Assembly: GCF_044456985.1 (NCBI RefSeq)
Contig: NZ_JBITGL010000015.1
Coordinates: 71,269-135,268, forward strand
Direction of reading: 5' to 3'
Length of the DNA: 64,000 nt
Origin: Nonomuraea sp. NPDC050663
Lineage (GTDB): Bacteria > Actinomycetota > Actinomycetes > Streptosporangiales > Streptosporangiaceae
Shown here: in pieces, positions 4,847-18,852 of the stretch
Layout: every line of letters begins with the position of its first letter
How positions within the stretch are numbered: position 1 is the first letter of the stretch
Notes under the pieces: generated by a model
Database searches by the model: none
What the model was told of the DNA's origin: nothing
Seen by the model: the letters and a program-made list of their open reading frames with translations, nothing else
Position numbers and translations under genes: made by a program

Positions 4847-5233
4847 TCAGCAGTCGACGAGCTCGGGCTTCTGGTTGAGGATCTGGGCGCGGGGGCTGGT
4901 GAACTCCCGGAGCGCGTCGACCGCGCCAGGGGAGAAGACCGCGACCCGGTGGCAGTTCTGGAACGCCAGCCTTACATCGAAGTGCCGTTCGAGCGCCCCG
5001 CGCATGGAGTCGCTGGCCAGGCACCGCAGCAACTGGCCGCGAGCCTCCTCGGAAGGCGGGGCGACGAGGTTGTCGGCGAACTCGGCGCCGGTCTCCGAGC
5101 GCTGCTGGACCAGGCCGCTGATCACCGACCAGGCGTACGGCAGGGAGTCGCGGACGCAGGCCACGAAGGCCGCGTCGTCCACGTCTCCGGCGCGCGCTTG
5201 GTCGAGCAGATCGTTGGGAACGGTCAGCGACAT
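4847..5233 (-). CDS. Conserved hypothetical protein (128 aa), downstream partner of the MinD/CooC-like ATPase
   Basis: Clean 128-aa ORF lying 43 nt downstream of the ATPase on the same strand. No recognisable catalytic motif. Confidence 0.5.
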   Translation of the reverse strand: MSLTVPNDLLDQARAGDVDDAAFVACVRDSLPYAWSVISGLVQQRSETGAEFADNLVAPPSEEARGQLLRCLASDSMRGALERHFDVRLAFQNCHRVAVFSPGAVDALREFTSPRAQILNQKPELVDC

Positions 5234-5276: not shown

Positions 5277-6204
5277 CTAGCCGAGCCGTCCATAGACGAA
5301 GCCGGGGTCTATCTGCAGGGAAAGATCGGTGCCGGCCCGCGAGTTTCCCCAGGCCTCCGCGTTGCGCTCGTGGAACTGTGCGGTCTGCCTGCCGTACCTC
5401 TCCCAGTTCTTCTCCTGGGCGTCGACCTGCTTGAGCACGCGGGAGAGCGCTTCGGTGTTGGCCGGTTCGAGATCGATCAGGTCGAAGGGGCGGCCCTGCT
5501 CCAGCGCGCGGACGGCCGAGGAGTGCTCGAACCAGGTCAGCAGCGAGTCGCCGACGTGGGCGCGCAGGAAGTCGACGTCGTCCGGTGAGTGGATCTTGTT
5601 GCCGACGACGGCGAGGCTGACGTCGTAGGCGGAGGCGTAGTCGCGGTATTGCTGGAAGACGCTGACGCCCTGGCGGGTGGGCTCGGCGACCAGGACGGTC
5701 AGGTCGAAGCGGGTGAACAGCCCCGAGGCGAAGGAGTCGGCCCCGGCGGTCATGTCGACCACGACGTACTCGCCCTGCTCGTCGACGAGGTGGTTGAGCA
5801 GCAGCTCGGCGGCGCCGACCTTGGAGTGGTAGCAGGCGACCCCGAGGTCCTCCTCGGCGAACGGCCCGGTGGCCATGAGGCGCAGGCCGTGCGGGGTGGC
5901 GACGGTGTACGGCAGGGCGTCGAGGGGGAGCAGCCGGGAGCCGCGTCCCGGCGGGGTCGTCTTGGTCATCGCGGCGGCCGAGGGGATCAGCGGGTTGGAG
6001 CCGCGCAGGAGCTCCTTGATCTCCTCCAGGTGGGCGCCCAGCGGCTCGGGCTGCTCGTCCAGGCCGAGGACGAGGGCGAGGTGCTGGTTGATGTCGGCGT
6101 CGATCGCGACGACCGGCGCGCCCTGGCTCGCTGCGTAACGGGCGAACAGGGCGGAGATCGTGGTCTTCCCGCTCCCGCCCTTGCCGACGAAGGCGACTCT
6201 CACC
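5277..6204 (-). CDS. MinD/ParA/CooC-family P-loop ATPase
   Basis: Deviant Walker A VAFVGKGGSGKTT immediately after the start. GTG start chosen at 6204 because a GAGGGAG Shine-Dalgarno lies 7 nt upstream. The ORF-track start at 6251 would leave only 11 bp before the divergent TPR gene. Confidence 0.75.
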
Positions 6205-13243: not shown

Positions 13244-14527
13244 TCAGCGGGCGTCACGGGGTTCGACCCTTCGCACGAGCAGCTCGGCATAGGTCGGCAG
13301 CAGCACCCCGCGCGCCGCCCTCCGGCGCACCACCGTGACCTCCGTCCGGAGCACCACGGAGGCCACGGCCTTGATCTCCTCCACAGCCAGCGGATAGCCG
13401 ATGCAGAAATGCGCCCCCGCGCCGAACCACAGCCGCCTCAGCTCGGGCGGATGCCTACGCGTCGGGTCGAAGCCCCCGGCGGCACGAGCGCAGTTGTGCG
13501 TCACGATCATCACCCGGTCGCCGGGGCGCACACCCACGTCCCCGACCCGCGCCGCGCGAGACACCGAACGGAGCATGACGGGGGTGGGGGTGGTGATCCT
13601 CATGGCCTCCTCGATCGCCCGACCAAGGTCGACGGCGAGGCCGTGACCATGGTCACGGTCGAGAACGACACCTGGCTCGCTACCGCCGCCATGCTCTTCA
13701 AGGCACCCATCCCCCCGCCTGTCGTCGCGCTCGCCCGCAGCCCCTTCGGCGCGCCCGCCACCAGACCCCAAGAACCCGTGATCGTGCAGCAACGCCACCA
13801 ACCGCGGCACGAACGTCGCCACCGTCTCCGTCCCCGTGAGAAAGAACGCCCCCGCCGCCCCCCGAGCCTCCGCCTCCGACAACCCCAGCTCGCTCATCCG
13901 CCCCATCACCGTGCCCGGATCCCCGTCACGATAGGCAGCCGAGGCGATGTCGCCGATCCGGTCAAGCACCTCCCTGGCCACCTTCACCTGCCGCCCCGAC
14001 AGGCTGCGGGTGCGCAGCGACACCATCGAGACCACCCGCTCCCCATCGGCGAACAGCTCCCGCGCACGCTCCTCCGACACCTCGCCGAGCCCGATGACCC
14101 TGCAGATCACCGCCCCGGCCATCAGCCGCATCGTGTCCACCAGGTCGACTGTCTCGCCCCGCGCCAGCCGGGCCTCGAGCTCGTCGAGCGGTCTCGCGAG
14201 CACGTCGGCCACCAGCGCCCGCACCGTCGCGGGCACGAACAACGGCGCAAGCTTCGCCCGGAGCGCGGCATGCGCCTCGCCCTCCATGTTGAGCAGCACC
14301 GACGGTCCCAGCACCGGCGTCCACAGGTCGCCGGGCGAGCCGGGCCCGTCCTTGCGGAAGGCAGGATCCATCAGCACCCGCCGAGCCACCGCCGCGTCGT
14401 TGACCACCACGCCCAGCCTCGGCACCCTCACCACCGGCCCCAGCCGCGCGAGCAGCCGCAGCAACGGATAGGCGAAGGGATGCGCCGCCAGATAGAGCCG
14501 TGCCTCGTGATCCAGGAACCTGGTCAC
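13244..14527 (-). CDS. Cytochrome P450
   Basis: Heme-binding loop FGAGAHFCIG, K-helix EEAMR, I-helix LTGTETV. A G/R/D-rich low-complexity segment lies between the I and K helices. Confidence 0.85.
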   Translation of the reverse strand: MTRFLDHEARLYLAAHPFAYPLLRLLARLGPVVRVPRLGVVVNDAAVARRVLMDPAFRKDGPGSPGDLWTPVLGPSVLLNMEGEAHAALRAKLAPLFVPATVRALVADVLARPLDELEARLARGETVDLVDTMRLMAGAVICRVIGLGEVSEERARELFADGERVVSMVSLRTRSLSGRQVKVAREVLDRIGDIASAAYRDGDPGTVMGRMSELGLSEAEARGAAGAFFLTGTETVATFVPRLVALLHDHGFLGSGGGRAEGAAGERDDRRGDGCLEEHGGGSEPGVVLDRDHGHGLAVDLGRAIEEAMRITTPTPVMLRSVSRAARVGDVGVRPGDRVMIVTHNCARAAGGFDPTRRHPPELRRLWFGAGAHFCIGYPLAVEEIKAVASVVLRTEVTVVRRRAARGVLLPTYAELLVRRVEPRDAR

Positions 14528-15948
14528 ATCTCCGCCAGCATCACACCCAGGCTGATCCCGCCGCCCAGCCCCAGTAAGGCGACCCGGTCACCCGCCTGCC
14601 ACGGGCCGAGCGACAGCTGCAGGGGGAGGGTGGCCGATGCGCAGTTACCGTGCTCGGGCAGCGTCACCACCAGCTTGTCCTCGGGGATGTCCAGCGACCG
14701 GGCCAGGAAGTCCAGGTACGGCAGCGCCACCTGGTGCACGGCGACCATGGCGAAGTCGTCCCAGTGCATCCCGGTGCGCTTCAACGCGTCCAGGAAGAGG
14801 TCGGGCCCGACGAGCTCGAACGCCTCCTTCAGCCGCCGGCCGTCACCGCGGAAGTAGGAGTAGTCGGGATCGCGCGGATGCGCCGACCCACCGCCCGGCA
14901 GAGTGCCGATGGCCCAGGCGGTGGAGTCGGCCGAGAAGCCGCGGTAGAAGATGCCCCGGTCGGCATCCGCCTCGACCAGGACTGCGGCTCCCGAGTCCGA
15001 GAGCGTGTATCCGGCGAACGAGTCGACGAACTGCGCGCGGTCGCGCACCTGCCAGCGAATGGCGCGCGACGGCGTCTCACCCGTGCAGACGAGCACCCGC
15101 CGGTGCGCGCCCGTGAGGATGAGCGCTTCGGCGATCTGGATGCCGTTGAGGAGGCTGTTGCACGCGTTCTTCACGTCGAAGACGGGACAGGTGAGGGCGA
15201 GCTTGGCGGCGACGATGTGGGCGGTGGCGGGCTCGACCATGTCTTGGGAGGCGGAGGCGAAGATCAGCAGGTCGATGTCCCCGCGCTCCACCGGCCGCAC
15301 CACCCCATCAGCCCACCGCACCTCCGGCTGCCCGCTCTGACCCGCGCCTCCCTCTCCACGCCCCTGCACGCCCGGCCCCTGCACGCCACGCCTCTGCACG
15401 CCACGCCCCTGTACGCCAGGCCCTTGCACGCCAGGCGCCTCCACGCCAGGCCCCTGCGTGCCAAGCCGCACGCCTGCCGTCTGCGAGTCAGGCCGTCCGC
15501 CGAGCGTCTGCGGGCCCGGCCTTACGCCCGGGGTCTGCACGCCGTGCCTCGCCTCGGGCGCTCCCGAGCCCAGCCTTACGTCGGGCGCCGCCGAGCCCAG
15601 CCCTACGCCGGGCGCATTCGAGCCAAGTCTCCCACCAGGCGCGTCCGAGCCCAGCCGTCCATCCGGCGAGCCCAGCCGTCCGTCCGATGTGCCGAGCCGT
15701 ACCGCGGACCCTCGCGGGCCGCCACGCTCCGCGAGCGGGGCGAGGATGCGGAGGGCCGCCTCCGCCGCCAGGTCCGATGCCTGTTGTCCCGGCGCGGCCA
15801 CGTGCCGTCGGCGGATGCCCGTCATGCGCTCGACGATCCCGCGCGGAGGCCGGTACCCCGACACCGACTGCTCCACCTCGTCGCTGGTGAGCGTCCTGGC
15901 CGGAAGGTAGCTGGCGATCACGCTGATGCGGGCTCTCATTCCCCGCAA
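14524..15948 (-). CDS. 3-oxoacyl-ACP synthase III (FabH-like) with a ~150-aa in-frame tandem-repeat insertion
   Basis: N-terminal ARISVIASYLPARTLTSDEVE..., active-site region DVKNACNSLLNG, and C-terminal ...HGNCASATLPLQL, all FabH-like. A 4-nt overlap (ATGA) with the P450 start. The insertion between the N-terminal region and DIDLLIFAS consists of GVQGP/GRLGS repeats. Confidence 0.7.
   Translation of the reverse strand: MRGMRARISVIASYLPARTLTSDEVEQSVSGYRPPRGIVERMTGIRRRHVAAPGQQASDLAAEAALRILAPLAERGGPRGSAVRLGTSDGRLGSPDGRLGSDAPGGRLGSNAPGVGLGSAAPDVRLGSGAPEARHGVQTPGVRPGPQTLGGRPDSQTAGVRLGTQGPGVEAPGVQGPGVQGRGVQRRGVQGPGVQGRGEGGAGQSGQPEVRWADGVVRPVERGDIDLLIFASASQDMVEPATAHIVAAKLALTCPVFDVKNACNSLLNGIQIAEALILTGAHRRVLVCTGETPSRAIRWQVRDRAQFVDSFAGYTLSDSGAAVLVEADADRGIFYRGFSADSTAWAIGTLPGGGSAHPRDPDYSYFRGDGRRLKEAFELVGPDLFLDALKRTGMHWDDFAMVAVHQVALPYLDFLARSLDIPEDKLVVTLPEHGNCASATLPLQLSLGPWQAGDRVALLGLGGGISLGVMLAEM
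15361..15465. repeat. 15-bp tandem repeat x7 (cccctgcacgccacg-like) inside the KAS III CDS
   Basis: Read directly. It encodes GVQGP/GVQGR pentapeptide repeats on the minus strand. A second family of ~27-bp repeats follows at about 15565-15700. Confidence 0.8.
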
Positions 15949-17472: not shown

Positions 17473-18072
17473 TCAGGCGACGTAGCGGCGCATCAGCCCC
17501 GACACCTGGCCGAGGTCGGCGAGGTACAGATGGGGCACATCCACGAAGATCCGCATGGAGCCGCAGCCCAGGCCGAGAATCCGCGCCATCCCGGCCTGGA
17601 CGTCTGCGAGCGGCACATAGTTCAGATAGCTCGTGTAAGCGTTCTGCGACCGGAAGGCCGCAGTCATCACCAGCCGCTCCTGCCTGATCCGGAACGCCAC
17701 CCCGGTCAGGCAGGGCACCTCGTTGGCCGGCTCGGCCGGCCGGGTGAGCGAGATCCACGCGCTCTTGCTGTACGGCTTGGCCCGCAGCACCTCGCTCGCC
17801 CACTGGACCTGGCCGTTGATGCGTTCCCCGTAGCTGTACTTGAAGGGCGCCACGACCTCGTTCTCGGTGAATTTCCTGGCGTAGAGGGCAGCCTTGGCCG
17901 CGTCGCCGTACCGCTCGATGAGCGGGTCGCGCCGGTCCACCTGCTTGATGGAGAAGAGCACCGCCGGAGCCTCGAGGACGGGCCCGCGGTCGTCGTCGGC
18001 CAGCGTGCCGTACGCCTGGACATGGCGCATCAGCCAGAACCACGCCTCACCGCAGGAGGCCTGTTCGATCAT
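17473..18072 (-). CDS. Thymidylate-synthase-fold protein (ThyA/dCMP-hydroxymethylase-like) lacking the first ~75 residues of ThyA
   Basis: By-eye alignment to E. coli ThyA: EAWFWLMRHVQ ~ ELLWFLQGDTN; SKSAWISL ~ RRIIVSAWN; VPCLTG ~ APCHAF (catalytic Cys); AFRSQNAYTSYLNYVPLADVQAGMARILGL ~ [31 protein letters not shown]. Confidence 0.5.
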   Translation of the reverse strand: MIEQASCGEAWFWLMRHVQAYGTLADDDRGPVLEAPAVLFSIKQVDRRDPLIERYGDAAKAALYARKFTENEVVAPFKYSYGERINGQVQWASEVLRAKPYSKSAWISLTRPAEPANEVPCLTGVAFRIRQERLVMTAAFRSQNAYTSYLNYVPLADVQAGMARILGLGCGSMRIFVDVPHLYLADLGQVSGLMRRYVA

Positions 18073-18710
18073 GGGTAACGCCTCCGCCTGGAGATGTTGC
18101 AGCGCACGTAGTAGACCGAATAGTGGAGCAGCGCGACCATCAGGATGCTGATCAGCAGCAGGGTCAAGTTGGGTGACTGGCGGGCCAGGCCGGTGACGCC
18201 GACGGTGAGGTAGGCGGAGTTGGCGATGGCCAGCATCATGACGTTGATGCCGGGCCAGGTGAGCGGCGCGTAGGTCTCTGGGAACTGCGGGTTGGTCGGC
18301 AGGTTGGGCGACCAGTTGAGATCCTTCTTGAGCCGTCCGGTGTAGAGCAGGCGGAAGTTGTTGAGCGCCCGCGCGGTCCTGGCGTGCGCGTCGACGGCTT
18401 CGATCATGCGCAGGAACGGCAGCACGCCGAGCACCCCGAAGGCCGCGACCAGGGCGAACAGGTACCAGGGCACGGTCTCCCAGCTGGTCAGGCTGGCCGG
18501 GTCGACGACCTTGGTGCTGGCCAGCGCGATCGCCGCCGCGAAGGGCGCGGACAGCAGGCTCATCGCCAGCCTGGTCATTTTCAGCCGTTCATCCTTGGCG
18601 GCGAGGTGAACCGCGTAGATGCCGGTGAAGTCCACCGCTGCGAGGTGGAGGAAGTGGCTCGTTTCGAGCTGCTCGTCCTCCGTGGCCATGCGTGGGGGTG
18701 TCTTCCGCAT
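18069..18710 (-). CDS. Hypothetical 4-TM membrane protein, translationally coupled (ATGA) to the ThyA-like gene
   Basis: Four hydrophobic helices. The stop overlaps the downstream start codon. Confidence 0.5.
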   Translation of the reverse strand: MRKTPPRMATEDEQLETSHFLHLAAVDFTGIYAVHLAAKDERLKMTRLAMSLLSAPFAAAIALASTKVVDPASLTSWETVPWYLFALVAAFGVLGVLPFLRMIEAVDAHARTARALNNFRLLYTGRLKKDLNWSPNLPTNPQFPETYAPLTWPGINVMMLAIANSAYLTVGVTGLARQSPNLTLLLISILMVALLHYSVYYVRCNISRRRRYP

Positions 18711-18852
18711 GAGGACGCTCCTGGACTGGGTTCCTTCAGTATGCGCACTCTCCGCCGCATTTCCAGGGCTTTCTTGCCATTTGTTCCAACAAATCTCAAC
18801 TGGTATGGGTCAGGATGGACCCTCACACGGTGTCATGCCCTAGAAAGACAAC

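Follow-up and report, generated by a model that had tools for sequence, protein, structure and literature searches.

We questioned why a stretch of DNA from the actinomycete Nonomuraea sp. NPDC050663 (64,000 nucleotides of contig NZ_JBITGL010000015.1, hereafter the window) carries a short gene of the thymidylate synthase (ThyA) kind joined to a gene for a membrane protein, and whether the short product is a broken ThyA or an enzyme in its own right. Its 199-aa product, which carries the database annotation 'hypothetical protein', is called ThyL here (for a compact ThyA-fold enzyme), and the 213-aa four-helix membrane protein encoded directly upstream is called Mem. An earlier interpretation based on the letters alone (the sequence-only reading) had described ThyL as a ThyA-like domain without its N-terminal part, and had considered that it might be a degraded remnant. 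We find instead that ThyL is no truncation of ThyA but belongs, as a complete protein, to a compact ThyA clade, and that Mem is its dedicated partner. The two genes may well form an operon for a membrane-tethered, Cys-dependent enzyme that modifies pyrimidine nucleotides at C5, probably a hydroxylase, although we hold this overall interpretation tentatively. The features on which the argument rests are the following.

18069–18710, minus strand: Mem gene, 213 aa (open reading frame map)
17473–18072, minus strand: ThyL gene, 199 aa (open reading frame map)
18069–18072, minus strand: ATGA overlap of the Mem stop and the ThyL start (tcat on the plus strand), a site of translational coupling
18081–18085, minus strand: GGAGG, Shine-Dalgarno-like, 8 nt 5' of the ThyL ATG (cctcc on the plus strand), putative function
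17983–17994, minus strand: codons of D27-D28-R29-G30, the N-terminal phosphate-binding Arg motif (equivalent of Escherichia coli R21, from alignment)
17710–17712, minus strand: codon of Cys121, the catalytic nucleophile (equivalent of E. coli C146; gca on the plus strand, read as TGC)
17641–17652, minus strand: codons of R141-S142-Q143-N144 (CGG TCG CAG AAC; E. coli R166-S167-C168-D169)
17620–17622, minus strand: codon of N151, the base-specificity residue (equivalent of E. coli N177, from alignment)
18711–18852, no strand assigned: divergent intergenic region 5' of Mem, 142 bp, presumed promoter (open reading frame map)

Residue numbers of ThyA are those of the E. coli protein throughout. The four-nucleotide overlap had been correctly noted in the sequence-only reading, and the GGAGG before ThyL falls within the last codons of Mem. 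GC content at third codon positions (GC3) is 0.92 for both genes, the same as for the neighbouring transporter gene. No sigma-70-type consensus was found in the intergenic region, a result that is uninformative for an actinomycete of 70% GC.

The strongest evidence for membrane coupling comes from gene fusions. An exhaustive profile search recovered Mem::ThyL fusion proteins of 410–430 aa in low-GC metagenomic bacteria, with Mem as the N-terminal half and ThyL as the C-terminal half. When a profile built from actinomycete Mem proteins only was aligned by hhalign with the N-terminal half of one fusion (P0249), the match had a probability of 99.0 and an E-value of 4.9e-18, and the motifs DF..IY.VYL, ARAINNFR.LY and W..NLP..P.YP are common to Mem and the N-terminal halves of the fusions. 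Mem residues that are invariant, fused forms included, comprise D27, F28, P56, P81, G92, R114, N117, R120, W133 and P144. The ThyL part of the fusions is attached to the predicted cytoplasmic C-terminus of Mem. Given these fusions and the side on which they are joined, Mem and ThyL almost certainly act as one membrane-bound unit, and ThyL would work at the cytoplasmic face of the membrane.

Where the genes are separate, they stay together. The distribution of the family and of the pair rests on pattern-based retrieval, and within it Mem was directly 5' of ThyL on the same strand in 23/23 genome loci, with differing flanking genes. The junction measured 0 nt in 18 loci (e.g. TGAATG, TAAATG) and was a 1-nt overlap (TGATG) in 3, while N. 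soli had a 4-nt overlap and Thermoactinospora (T. rubra) a 12-nt spacer with GGAGG; a 0-nt gap or an overlap was therefore present in all but one of the 23. A reciprocal look-up from 3 Mem homologues of other lineages found a ThyL-sized gene abutting or overlapping downstream in 3/3. A search for Mem homologues yielded 119 proteins, almost all of them matched over their full length and drawn from the taxa of the ThyL family, and Mem and ThyL homologues were often encoded on the same contigs with neighbouring locus tags. The sequence-only reading had judged the pairing of a minimal ThyA-like enzyme with a membrane protein to be a non-housekeeping arrangement, and this view gains from a pair that is conserved and coupled across Streptosporangiaceae and fused elsewhere. 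The Mem proteins of the window and of N. soli end in ...RRRRYP and are without the 11-residue tail HNPYxFPNxET of all other homologues (site of the loss at 18069–18110 in the window; compare loci L002–L023 at about 5940–5990). Deletion of this tail turned the usual stop-then-ATG junction into the 4-nt ATGA overlap in these two genomes.

Mem itself has four hydrophobic segments (about residues 46–66, 80–100, 153–175 and 182–203), and the number of Lys plus Arg residues in successive loops (6/1/7/1/4) predicts an N-in/C-in topology. Its AlphaFold2 model is all-helical with a predicted local distance difference test score (pLDDT) of 81. The protein scored below every family threshold in Pfam, NCBIfam and PADLOC, in agreement with the earlier description of a four-transmembrane protein with no recognisable family.

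We assessed whether ThyL is a whole enzyme by comparing it with curated families, predicted structure and its own homologues. The best-scoring curated family was TIGR03283 (NCBIfam, archaeal thymidylate synthases of ~200 residues), in which ThyL 1–187 aligned with positions 2–198 of 201 (E-value 1.6e-13), yet the score of 50.7 bits compares with an equivalog cutoff of 174.55. The Pfam family Thymidylat_synt (PF00303), which the sequence-only reading had pointed to, was matched, but only at 20.8 bits against a gathering threshold of 24.3 and only over residues 83–196; some ThyL homologues carry a precomputed PF00303 hit. This partial match is presumably what had been seen by eye when the N-terminal ~75 residues, with the dimer-interface part and the phosphate-binding Arg, were reported missing. 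That claim does not hold, as the TIGR03283 alignment begins at the first residue, and D27-D28-R29-G30, preceded by a conserved helix, is invariant in an alignment of 35 ThyL homologues; in an hmmsearch alignment, helix and motif fall on the N-terminal helix of E. coli ThyA and its N-D-R21-T-G. The predicted structure shows a full-length fold (pLDDT 94.8, 193/199 residues aligned). Two differences from E. coli ThyA account for the shortness of ThyL: it has no equivalent of the final ~39 residues (226–264), and the helical region that leads from strand 1 to the YG motif is compressed.

The residues of the ThyA active site are retained in this compact frame. The catalytic Cys (C121, in VPCLTG), which aligned with its catalytic counterparts in MilA, AfhB and E. 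coli ThyA, and the R141-S142-Q143-N144 stretch were invariant in the 35 homologues, so that both motifs named in the sequence-only reading stand. C121, R141, S142 and R29 (E. coli Cys146, Arg166, Ser167 and Arg21) were invariant or nearly so among the relatives. Other invariant positions were D178, H181 and Y183 (E. coli D205, H207 and Y209, with sugar ligands of the H207/Y209 type), N151, which aligned with E. coli N177 and with an Asp of AfhB- and MilA-type enzymes, and K103-S104, which occupy the place of E. coli Arg126'-Arg127', the pair given by the second subunit. Most of the compact bacterial clade likewise has Lys-Ser there. ThyL belongs to the ThyA superfamily.

These results also dispose of the idea that ThyL is a degraded or frameshifted pseudogene of a full-length thyA, which we regard as refuted and to which we assign practically no probability. 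Its length (199 aa compared with 264 in E. coli) and the Pfam score just under threshold would suit a remnant, but the fold is full-length, the N-terminal motif is kept, the listed homologues are similar in length and the alignment holds about 50 invariant columns. The homologue search returned 159 proteins, of which the 120 listed were 180–280 aa and came from Nonomuraea, Streptosporangium, Planomonospora, Planobispora, Thermoactinospora, Thermocatellispora, Spongiactinospora, Actinoallomurus and soil metagenomes. Pairwise ratios of nonsynonymous to synonymous substitution rates (dN/dS) were 0.32–0.56 for ThyL and 0.22–0.51 for Mem, values that are probably overestimates because of the extreme codon bias, and both genes appear to be under purifying selection. 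The frame upstream of ThyL is occupied by the conserved Mem gene, and tblastn with E. coli ThyA found no ThyA-like sequence upstream in any frame. No canonical thyA or thyX was found within the 64-kb window (tblastn and a ThyX-motif scan). Besides these homologues, the top match of the exhaustive search, the 221-aa close cluster representative P0240, carries VPHL, with His where the catalytic Cys would be, and RSQD rather than RSQN, and may be an inactivated or repurposed paralogue.

The chemistry of ThyL is suggested by what differs from ThyA. Asp169 of E. coli ThyA hydrogen-bonds the pterin ring of folate, and the C-terminal segment of that enzyme closes over the folate; a switch of cofactor would therefore be expected to bring Asn at position 169 together with loss of the folate-closing C-terminus. 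N144 of ThyL is Asn at the Asp169 position and is invariant in the ThyL family, whose R-S-Q-N motif is identical in AfhB-type enzymes. The top Foldseek matches of the predicted structure were 9iqu and 9iqc from phage HY126 (9iqu: E-value 7e-14, template modelling score 0.81), described in the PDB as 'dCMP hydroxylase AfhB' and 'monooxygenase dependent on riboflavin with dCMP and FAD' (dCMP, deoxycytidine monophosphate; FAD, flavin adenine dinucleotide), so that the nearest solved structure to ThyL is of the flavin-bound AfhB type. The family profile aligned with an AfhB-type protein of a Dhakavirus at a probability of 94.4 (E-value 8.6e-8) and with E. coli ThyA at a probability of 1.6 (E-value 0.033).

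Flavin-using hydroxylation by a ThyA fold was reported in 2025–2026, only for phage dCMP enzymes. RB69 gp48, DLP3 gp80 and relatives produce 5-hydroxy-dCMP with bound flavin and with oxygen taken from O2 (Lee et al., PMC13326640). A change of Asp169 (E. coli numbering) to Asn, D169N, is reported to be diagnostic of these synthases, and nine of nine further selected D169N homologues made 5-hydroxydeoxycytidine in an in vivo assay (PMC13326640); the authors of the phage hydroxylase work leave open how the switch of cofactor came about. Based on the invariant Asn169, the absence of a folate-closing C-terminus and AfhB as the closest structure, hydroxylation is favoured over folate-dependent methyl transfer, and Asn at the base-specificity position (N151) predicts a uracil-type nucleotide, either uridine monophosphate (UMP) or deoxyuridine monophosphate (dUMP). 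The residues that bear on the sugar are mixed, with Ser at the Ser167 position of the deoxy type and Lys at Arg126 of the MilA ribo type. Flavin- and O2-dependent C5-hydroxylation of UMP or dUMP is thus rated, though only moderately, as the most likely chemistry.

A table of active-site signatures for the 150 best cluster representatives places this combination among its relatives. The nearest ~25 clusters nearly all have Cys, Lys-Ser, RSQN and Asn177. The next clade has RSQD with Asp177 and is often fused or adjacent to Ham1, NUDIX or methyltransferase proteins, and an archaeal-like clade has Arg-Arg, RSHD and Asn177 and is often fused to MtrA-like and pterin-binding (PterinBD-DUF4346) domains; farther clades retain Asp169. 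Outside the ThyL family, gp74 of Mycobacterium phage Candle (L087 1288–2286; also in Papyrus, Send513 and related phages) is a 333-aa 'thymidylate synthase' with R-S-N-N, in which the Asp169-to-Asn change is combined with Asn at the specificity position, i.e. a uracil-type pocket. Given this combination, proteins of the Candle gp74 type may be hydroxylases rather than thymidylate synthases.

Genes that neighbour ThyL relatives add a view of the substrate. The 3' end of ThyL is overlapped by a HAD hydrolase gene in two Planobispora species (P. longispora and P. rosea) and in a soil contig, which gives a three-gene operon (L018 6647–7372, L022 6647–7387, L090 5453–6202). The hydrolases are orthologous between lineages (45% identity), with YjjG noncanonical pyrimidine nucleotidases (TIGR02254) as best match (E-value 1.5e-39; 136 bits against a cutoff of 160). 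Divergently upstream in L090 lies a GTP cyclohydrolase I gene. Directly 3' of every fusion gene on sufficiently long contigs (fusion loci L024 782–2532, L026 1842–4268, L027 802–2581, L029 and L030) is a gene for a LOG/SLOG-family protein of ~166 aa that matched LDcluster4/Lysine_decarbox in Pfam (PF18306/PF03641) and TIGR00725, LOG and PpnN-like families in NCBIfam, and carries the motif G-x-G-T-x-x-E. A deoxynucleoside-kinase-family gene lies 5' of the fusion in 3 loci and overlaps the fusion gene in at least 2, and in L024 a GmrSD_N gene is next after the LOG gene. Unfused relatives with RSQN and Asn at the specificity position are preceded in the same operon by a gene for a ThiL-like kinase of the AIR-synthase family in 15 loci, and more distant ThyL relatives have Ham1, NT5C-like or NUDIX partners. 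As these partner genes all handle mononucleotides, a mononucleotide substrate is likely for ThyL too. The recurrent logic would be that a nucleoside monophosphate is made or supplied, modified at C5, and then stripped of its phosphate or of its whole sugar phosphate.

Several observations weigh against this interpretation. In Nonomuraea the pair has no linked gene for a flavin reductase, a nucleotidase or a nucleosidase. No LOG, deoxynucleoside kinase or YjjG-like gene was found near the pair in Nonomuraea or in the window, and a search to a distance of 6 kb from the pair gave no LOG/SLOG-family gene, either in 23 actinomycete loci or in the window; a weak tblastn match at 42.7 kb, inside a 931-aa open reading frame, was dismissed. 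The D169N change is diagnostic only within phage dCMP enzymes that have Asp177 and Arg126-Arg127, where ThyL has Asn and Lys-Ser. At the Leu143 position the ThyL of the window has Glu118, but most family members have Ala there, with a conserved Asp/Asn one residue earlier. Group hidden Markov model (HMM) scores for AfhB were 58 bits with the ThyL clade and 50–55 bits with clades that keep Asp169; with AfhB only marginally nearer to the ThyL clade, Asn169 could be convergent or unrelated to flavin use. A structural-neighbour search with Mem returned only generic helical bundles, which lends nothing to a transport role.

If ThyL kept the classical chemistry, it would be a folate- or other pterin-dependent methyl- or hydroxymethyl-transferase acting at C5, i.e. 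an alternative thymidylate synthase or a UMP/dUMP hydroxymethylase that happens to be membrane-associated. We consider this rather unlikely. The full residue set for Cys-mediated C5 activation is present, the best family HMM is that of short archaeal thymidylate synthases, some homologues are annotated as thymidylate synthase by their sources, and substitutions of Asp169 in E. coli ThyA reduce activity without always abolishing it. Yet the ThyL family always has Asn at the Asp169 equivalent, whereas Asp is retained in relatives of the archaeal and MilA types; nothing in ThyL corresponds to the C-terminal ~39 residues of E. coli ThyA; and ThyL has no PterinBD-type accessory domain, unlike the short archaeal-like fusions. 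The TIGR03283 score also falls far under its cutoff, and the family profile matches E. coli ThyA only weakly.

A role in conflict, which the sequence-only reading had raised as speculation, appears unlikely as well. ThyL would then deplete or poison the pyrimidine pool, or sense a nucleotide, as part of an anti-phage or toxin module in which Mem acts as a SLATT-like membrane-disrupting effector. Neighbours of more distant relatives lend this some weight: NACHT and Schlafen-AlbA_2 STAND NTPases (~1100 aa) adjoin them in 13 loci, pVip (PADLOC E-value 2.5e-90) lies within 3 genes of them in 4 loci, and the fused forms are always followed by the SLOG/LOG-family gene and, in one locus, by GmrSD_N 3' of it. 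The NACHT- and viperin-linked RSQN/Asn relatives may represent an uncharacterised nucleotide-based defence module in their own right (the ThiL-like-kinase/defence group: L043, L046, L049–L052, L056–L061, L063, L065, L067 and L074, around position 5000 where the full flank is present). For Mem, weak SLATT_1 and SLATT_4 matches occurred in 9/32 and 5/32 homologues, but none was significant (best E-values 0.21 and 0.08, respectively), the window Mem matched SLATT_1 at an E-value of 5.3 (NCBIfam), Pfam SLATT_6 matched one member at 0.73, and PADLOC gave no match; with four transmembrane helices rather than two, Mem was not accepted as a SLATT member, and these sub-threshold matches are a weak lead. 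The pair looks vertically inherited in Streptosporangiaceae, in at least eight genera, with GC3 equal to that of its neighbours. Nonomuraea flanks are partly syntenic (LysR, DapA-like, FAD monooxygenase and beta-lactamase-like genes), and the scanned Streptosporangium and Planobispora flanks are ordinary (P-type ATPase, MarR, DnaJ and dehydrogenases) without defence or mobile genes. None of ThyL, Mem, the fusion protein and the LOG partner had a PADLOC match. A phage origin and a plasmid location were likewise considered and rejected: two alignment-based pattern scans of IMG/VR viral contigs found no close relatives, INPHARED matches were remote (25–28% identity), and PLSDB gave a match only to the 11.8-Mb record of Nonomuraea gerenzanensis, with no plasmid-borne copies.

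Taken as a membrane-tethered hydroxylase system, the pair would operate as follows. ThyL would be held by Mem at the cytoplasmic face of the membrane, accept UMP or dUMP and hydroxylate it at C5 using flavin and O2. The modified nucleotide would be processed to a nucleoside or free base by the YjjG-like nucleotidase in some lineages and by the LOG-type nucleosidase in fused lineages, and at the membrane the product would probably be released or passed on, Mem serving as an anchor and possibly as a conduit. Such a product might serve as an antimetabolite, as a signal, as a conflict molecule or as a precursor of the cell envelope. Our preference is for a resident pathway whose product is a modified pyrimidine made at the membrane; a role in conflict or as an antimetabolite is possible.

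A bolder version, which we regard as possible but somewhat doubtful, is that ThyL represents the first cellular, non-viral branch of flavin-type ThyA-fold hydroxylases and the first that is uracil-specific. It would be a membrane-tethered (d)UMP 5-hydroxylase whose product is taken to 5-hydroxyuridine or 5-hydroxydeoxyuridine by the YjjG-like nucleotidase, or to 5-hydroxyuracil by the LOG-type nucleosidase, and Mem would deliver this product, an antimetabolite, an antiviral or a signal, either at the membrane or across it. The phage 5-hydroxy-dCMP synthases might then derive from the compact cellular clade. The ThyA superfamily itself is already known. Judged by its sequence features, what appears to be new is a cellular, membrane-coupled, uracil-type branch with a hydroxylase signature and an unclassified, dedicated four-transmembrane partner, and the active-site signature suggests that cells have a so far undescribed way of making a modified pyrimidine at the membrane. 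In the searchable literature, neither a ThyA-fold UMP/dUMP hydroxylase nor a membrane-tethered ThyA-like enzyme was described. The pair is a cloneable test case for the origin of the flavin branch, for the deliberate cellular production of 5-hydroxyuracil nucleotides and for the benefit of a membrane anchor. Partners of the wider group (nucleotidase, LOG nucleosidase, kinases, Ham1 and NUDIX proteins), together with viperin and STAND neighbours, suggest an unexplored family of modified-nucleotide pathways. If the chemistry proved to be ordinary folate-dependent methylation, the finding would reduce to a new membrane-associated ThyA subfamily.

Elsewhere in the window, an open reading frame for a FabH/KAS III-like protein (14524–15948, minus strand) is interrupted by an insert rich in Gly, Pro and Arg that runs to well over 100 residues; tandem repeats of 15, 27 and 21 nt (15356–15457, 15555–15656 and 15646–15700) encode it. 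Orthologues in several other Nonomuraea aligned over ~250 residues only.

Compared with known systems, ThyL shares with canonical ThyA (PF00303) the fold, the catalytic Cys and the equivalents of R21/R166/S167, N177 and H207/Y209. Canonical ThyA differs in Asp169, Arg126-Arg127, the C-terminal ~39 residues and a longer helical region after strand 1, and only ThyL has a membrane partner. Archaeal short thymidylate synthases (TIGR03283) resemble ThyL in length (~200 aa) and are colinear with it end to end, but archaeal-like representatives differ in having Arg-Arg and R-S-H-Asp169 alongside Asn177, some with MtrA-like and PterinBD-DUF4346 fusions. SLATT-SLOG conflict systems also tie a small helical membrane protein to a nucleotide-processing enzyme, and the fused relatives extend this likeness to SLOG/LOG; they differ from the pair in that Mem has four transmembrane helices rather than two and no significant SLATT match, and in that the pair has no nucleotide cyclase/SMODS partner and sits in a stable Streptosporangiaceae context.

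The cytidine monophosphate (CMP) hydroxymethylases MilA and BcmA, of the mildiomycin and bacimethrin pathways, are a precedent for recruiting the ThyA fold from DNA-precursor metabolism to the production of small molecules, as proposed for ThyL. With 318–342 aa, MilA is a folate-using enzyme that has retained Asp169; its specificity residue is Asp, and Ala stands at the Ser167 position (PMC5175136). Like ThyL, MilA has Lys at the Arg126 position, and the logic of MilA/MilB and BcmA/BcmB, in which the C5 of a nucleoside monophosphate is modified and the sugar phosphate is then taken off by an N-glycosidase, is mirrored by the LOG nucleosidase of fused ThyL relatives. CMP/dCMP hydroxymethylases (MilA, BcmA and T4 gp42) have Asp both at the specificity position and at 169, whereas ThyL has Asn at both; MilA has no membrane partner, and no glycosidase is linked to the Nonomuraea pair.

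The phage 5-hydroxy-dCMP synthases (HY126 AfhB, RB69 gp48 and DLP3 gp80) share with ThyL a compact ThyA fold of about 200–235 aa without a long C-terminal tail, R-S-Q-N with the D169N change, and the catalytic Cys, although sequence identity is only ~20–26%. They have Asp (cytosine type) at the Asn177 position where ThyL has Asn (uracil type), and Arg126-Arg127 where ThyL has Lys-Ser. The acidic residue at the Leu143 position that is a feature of the AfhB type is present as Glu in the window, but is mostly Ala in the ThyL family. Finally, the phage enzymes are phage-borne and coupled to deoxynucleoside monophosphate kinase and glycosyltransferase genes, whereas ThyL is cellular, apparently vertically inherited and coupled to a membrane protein.

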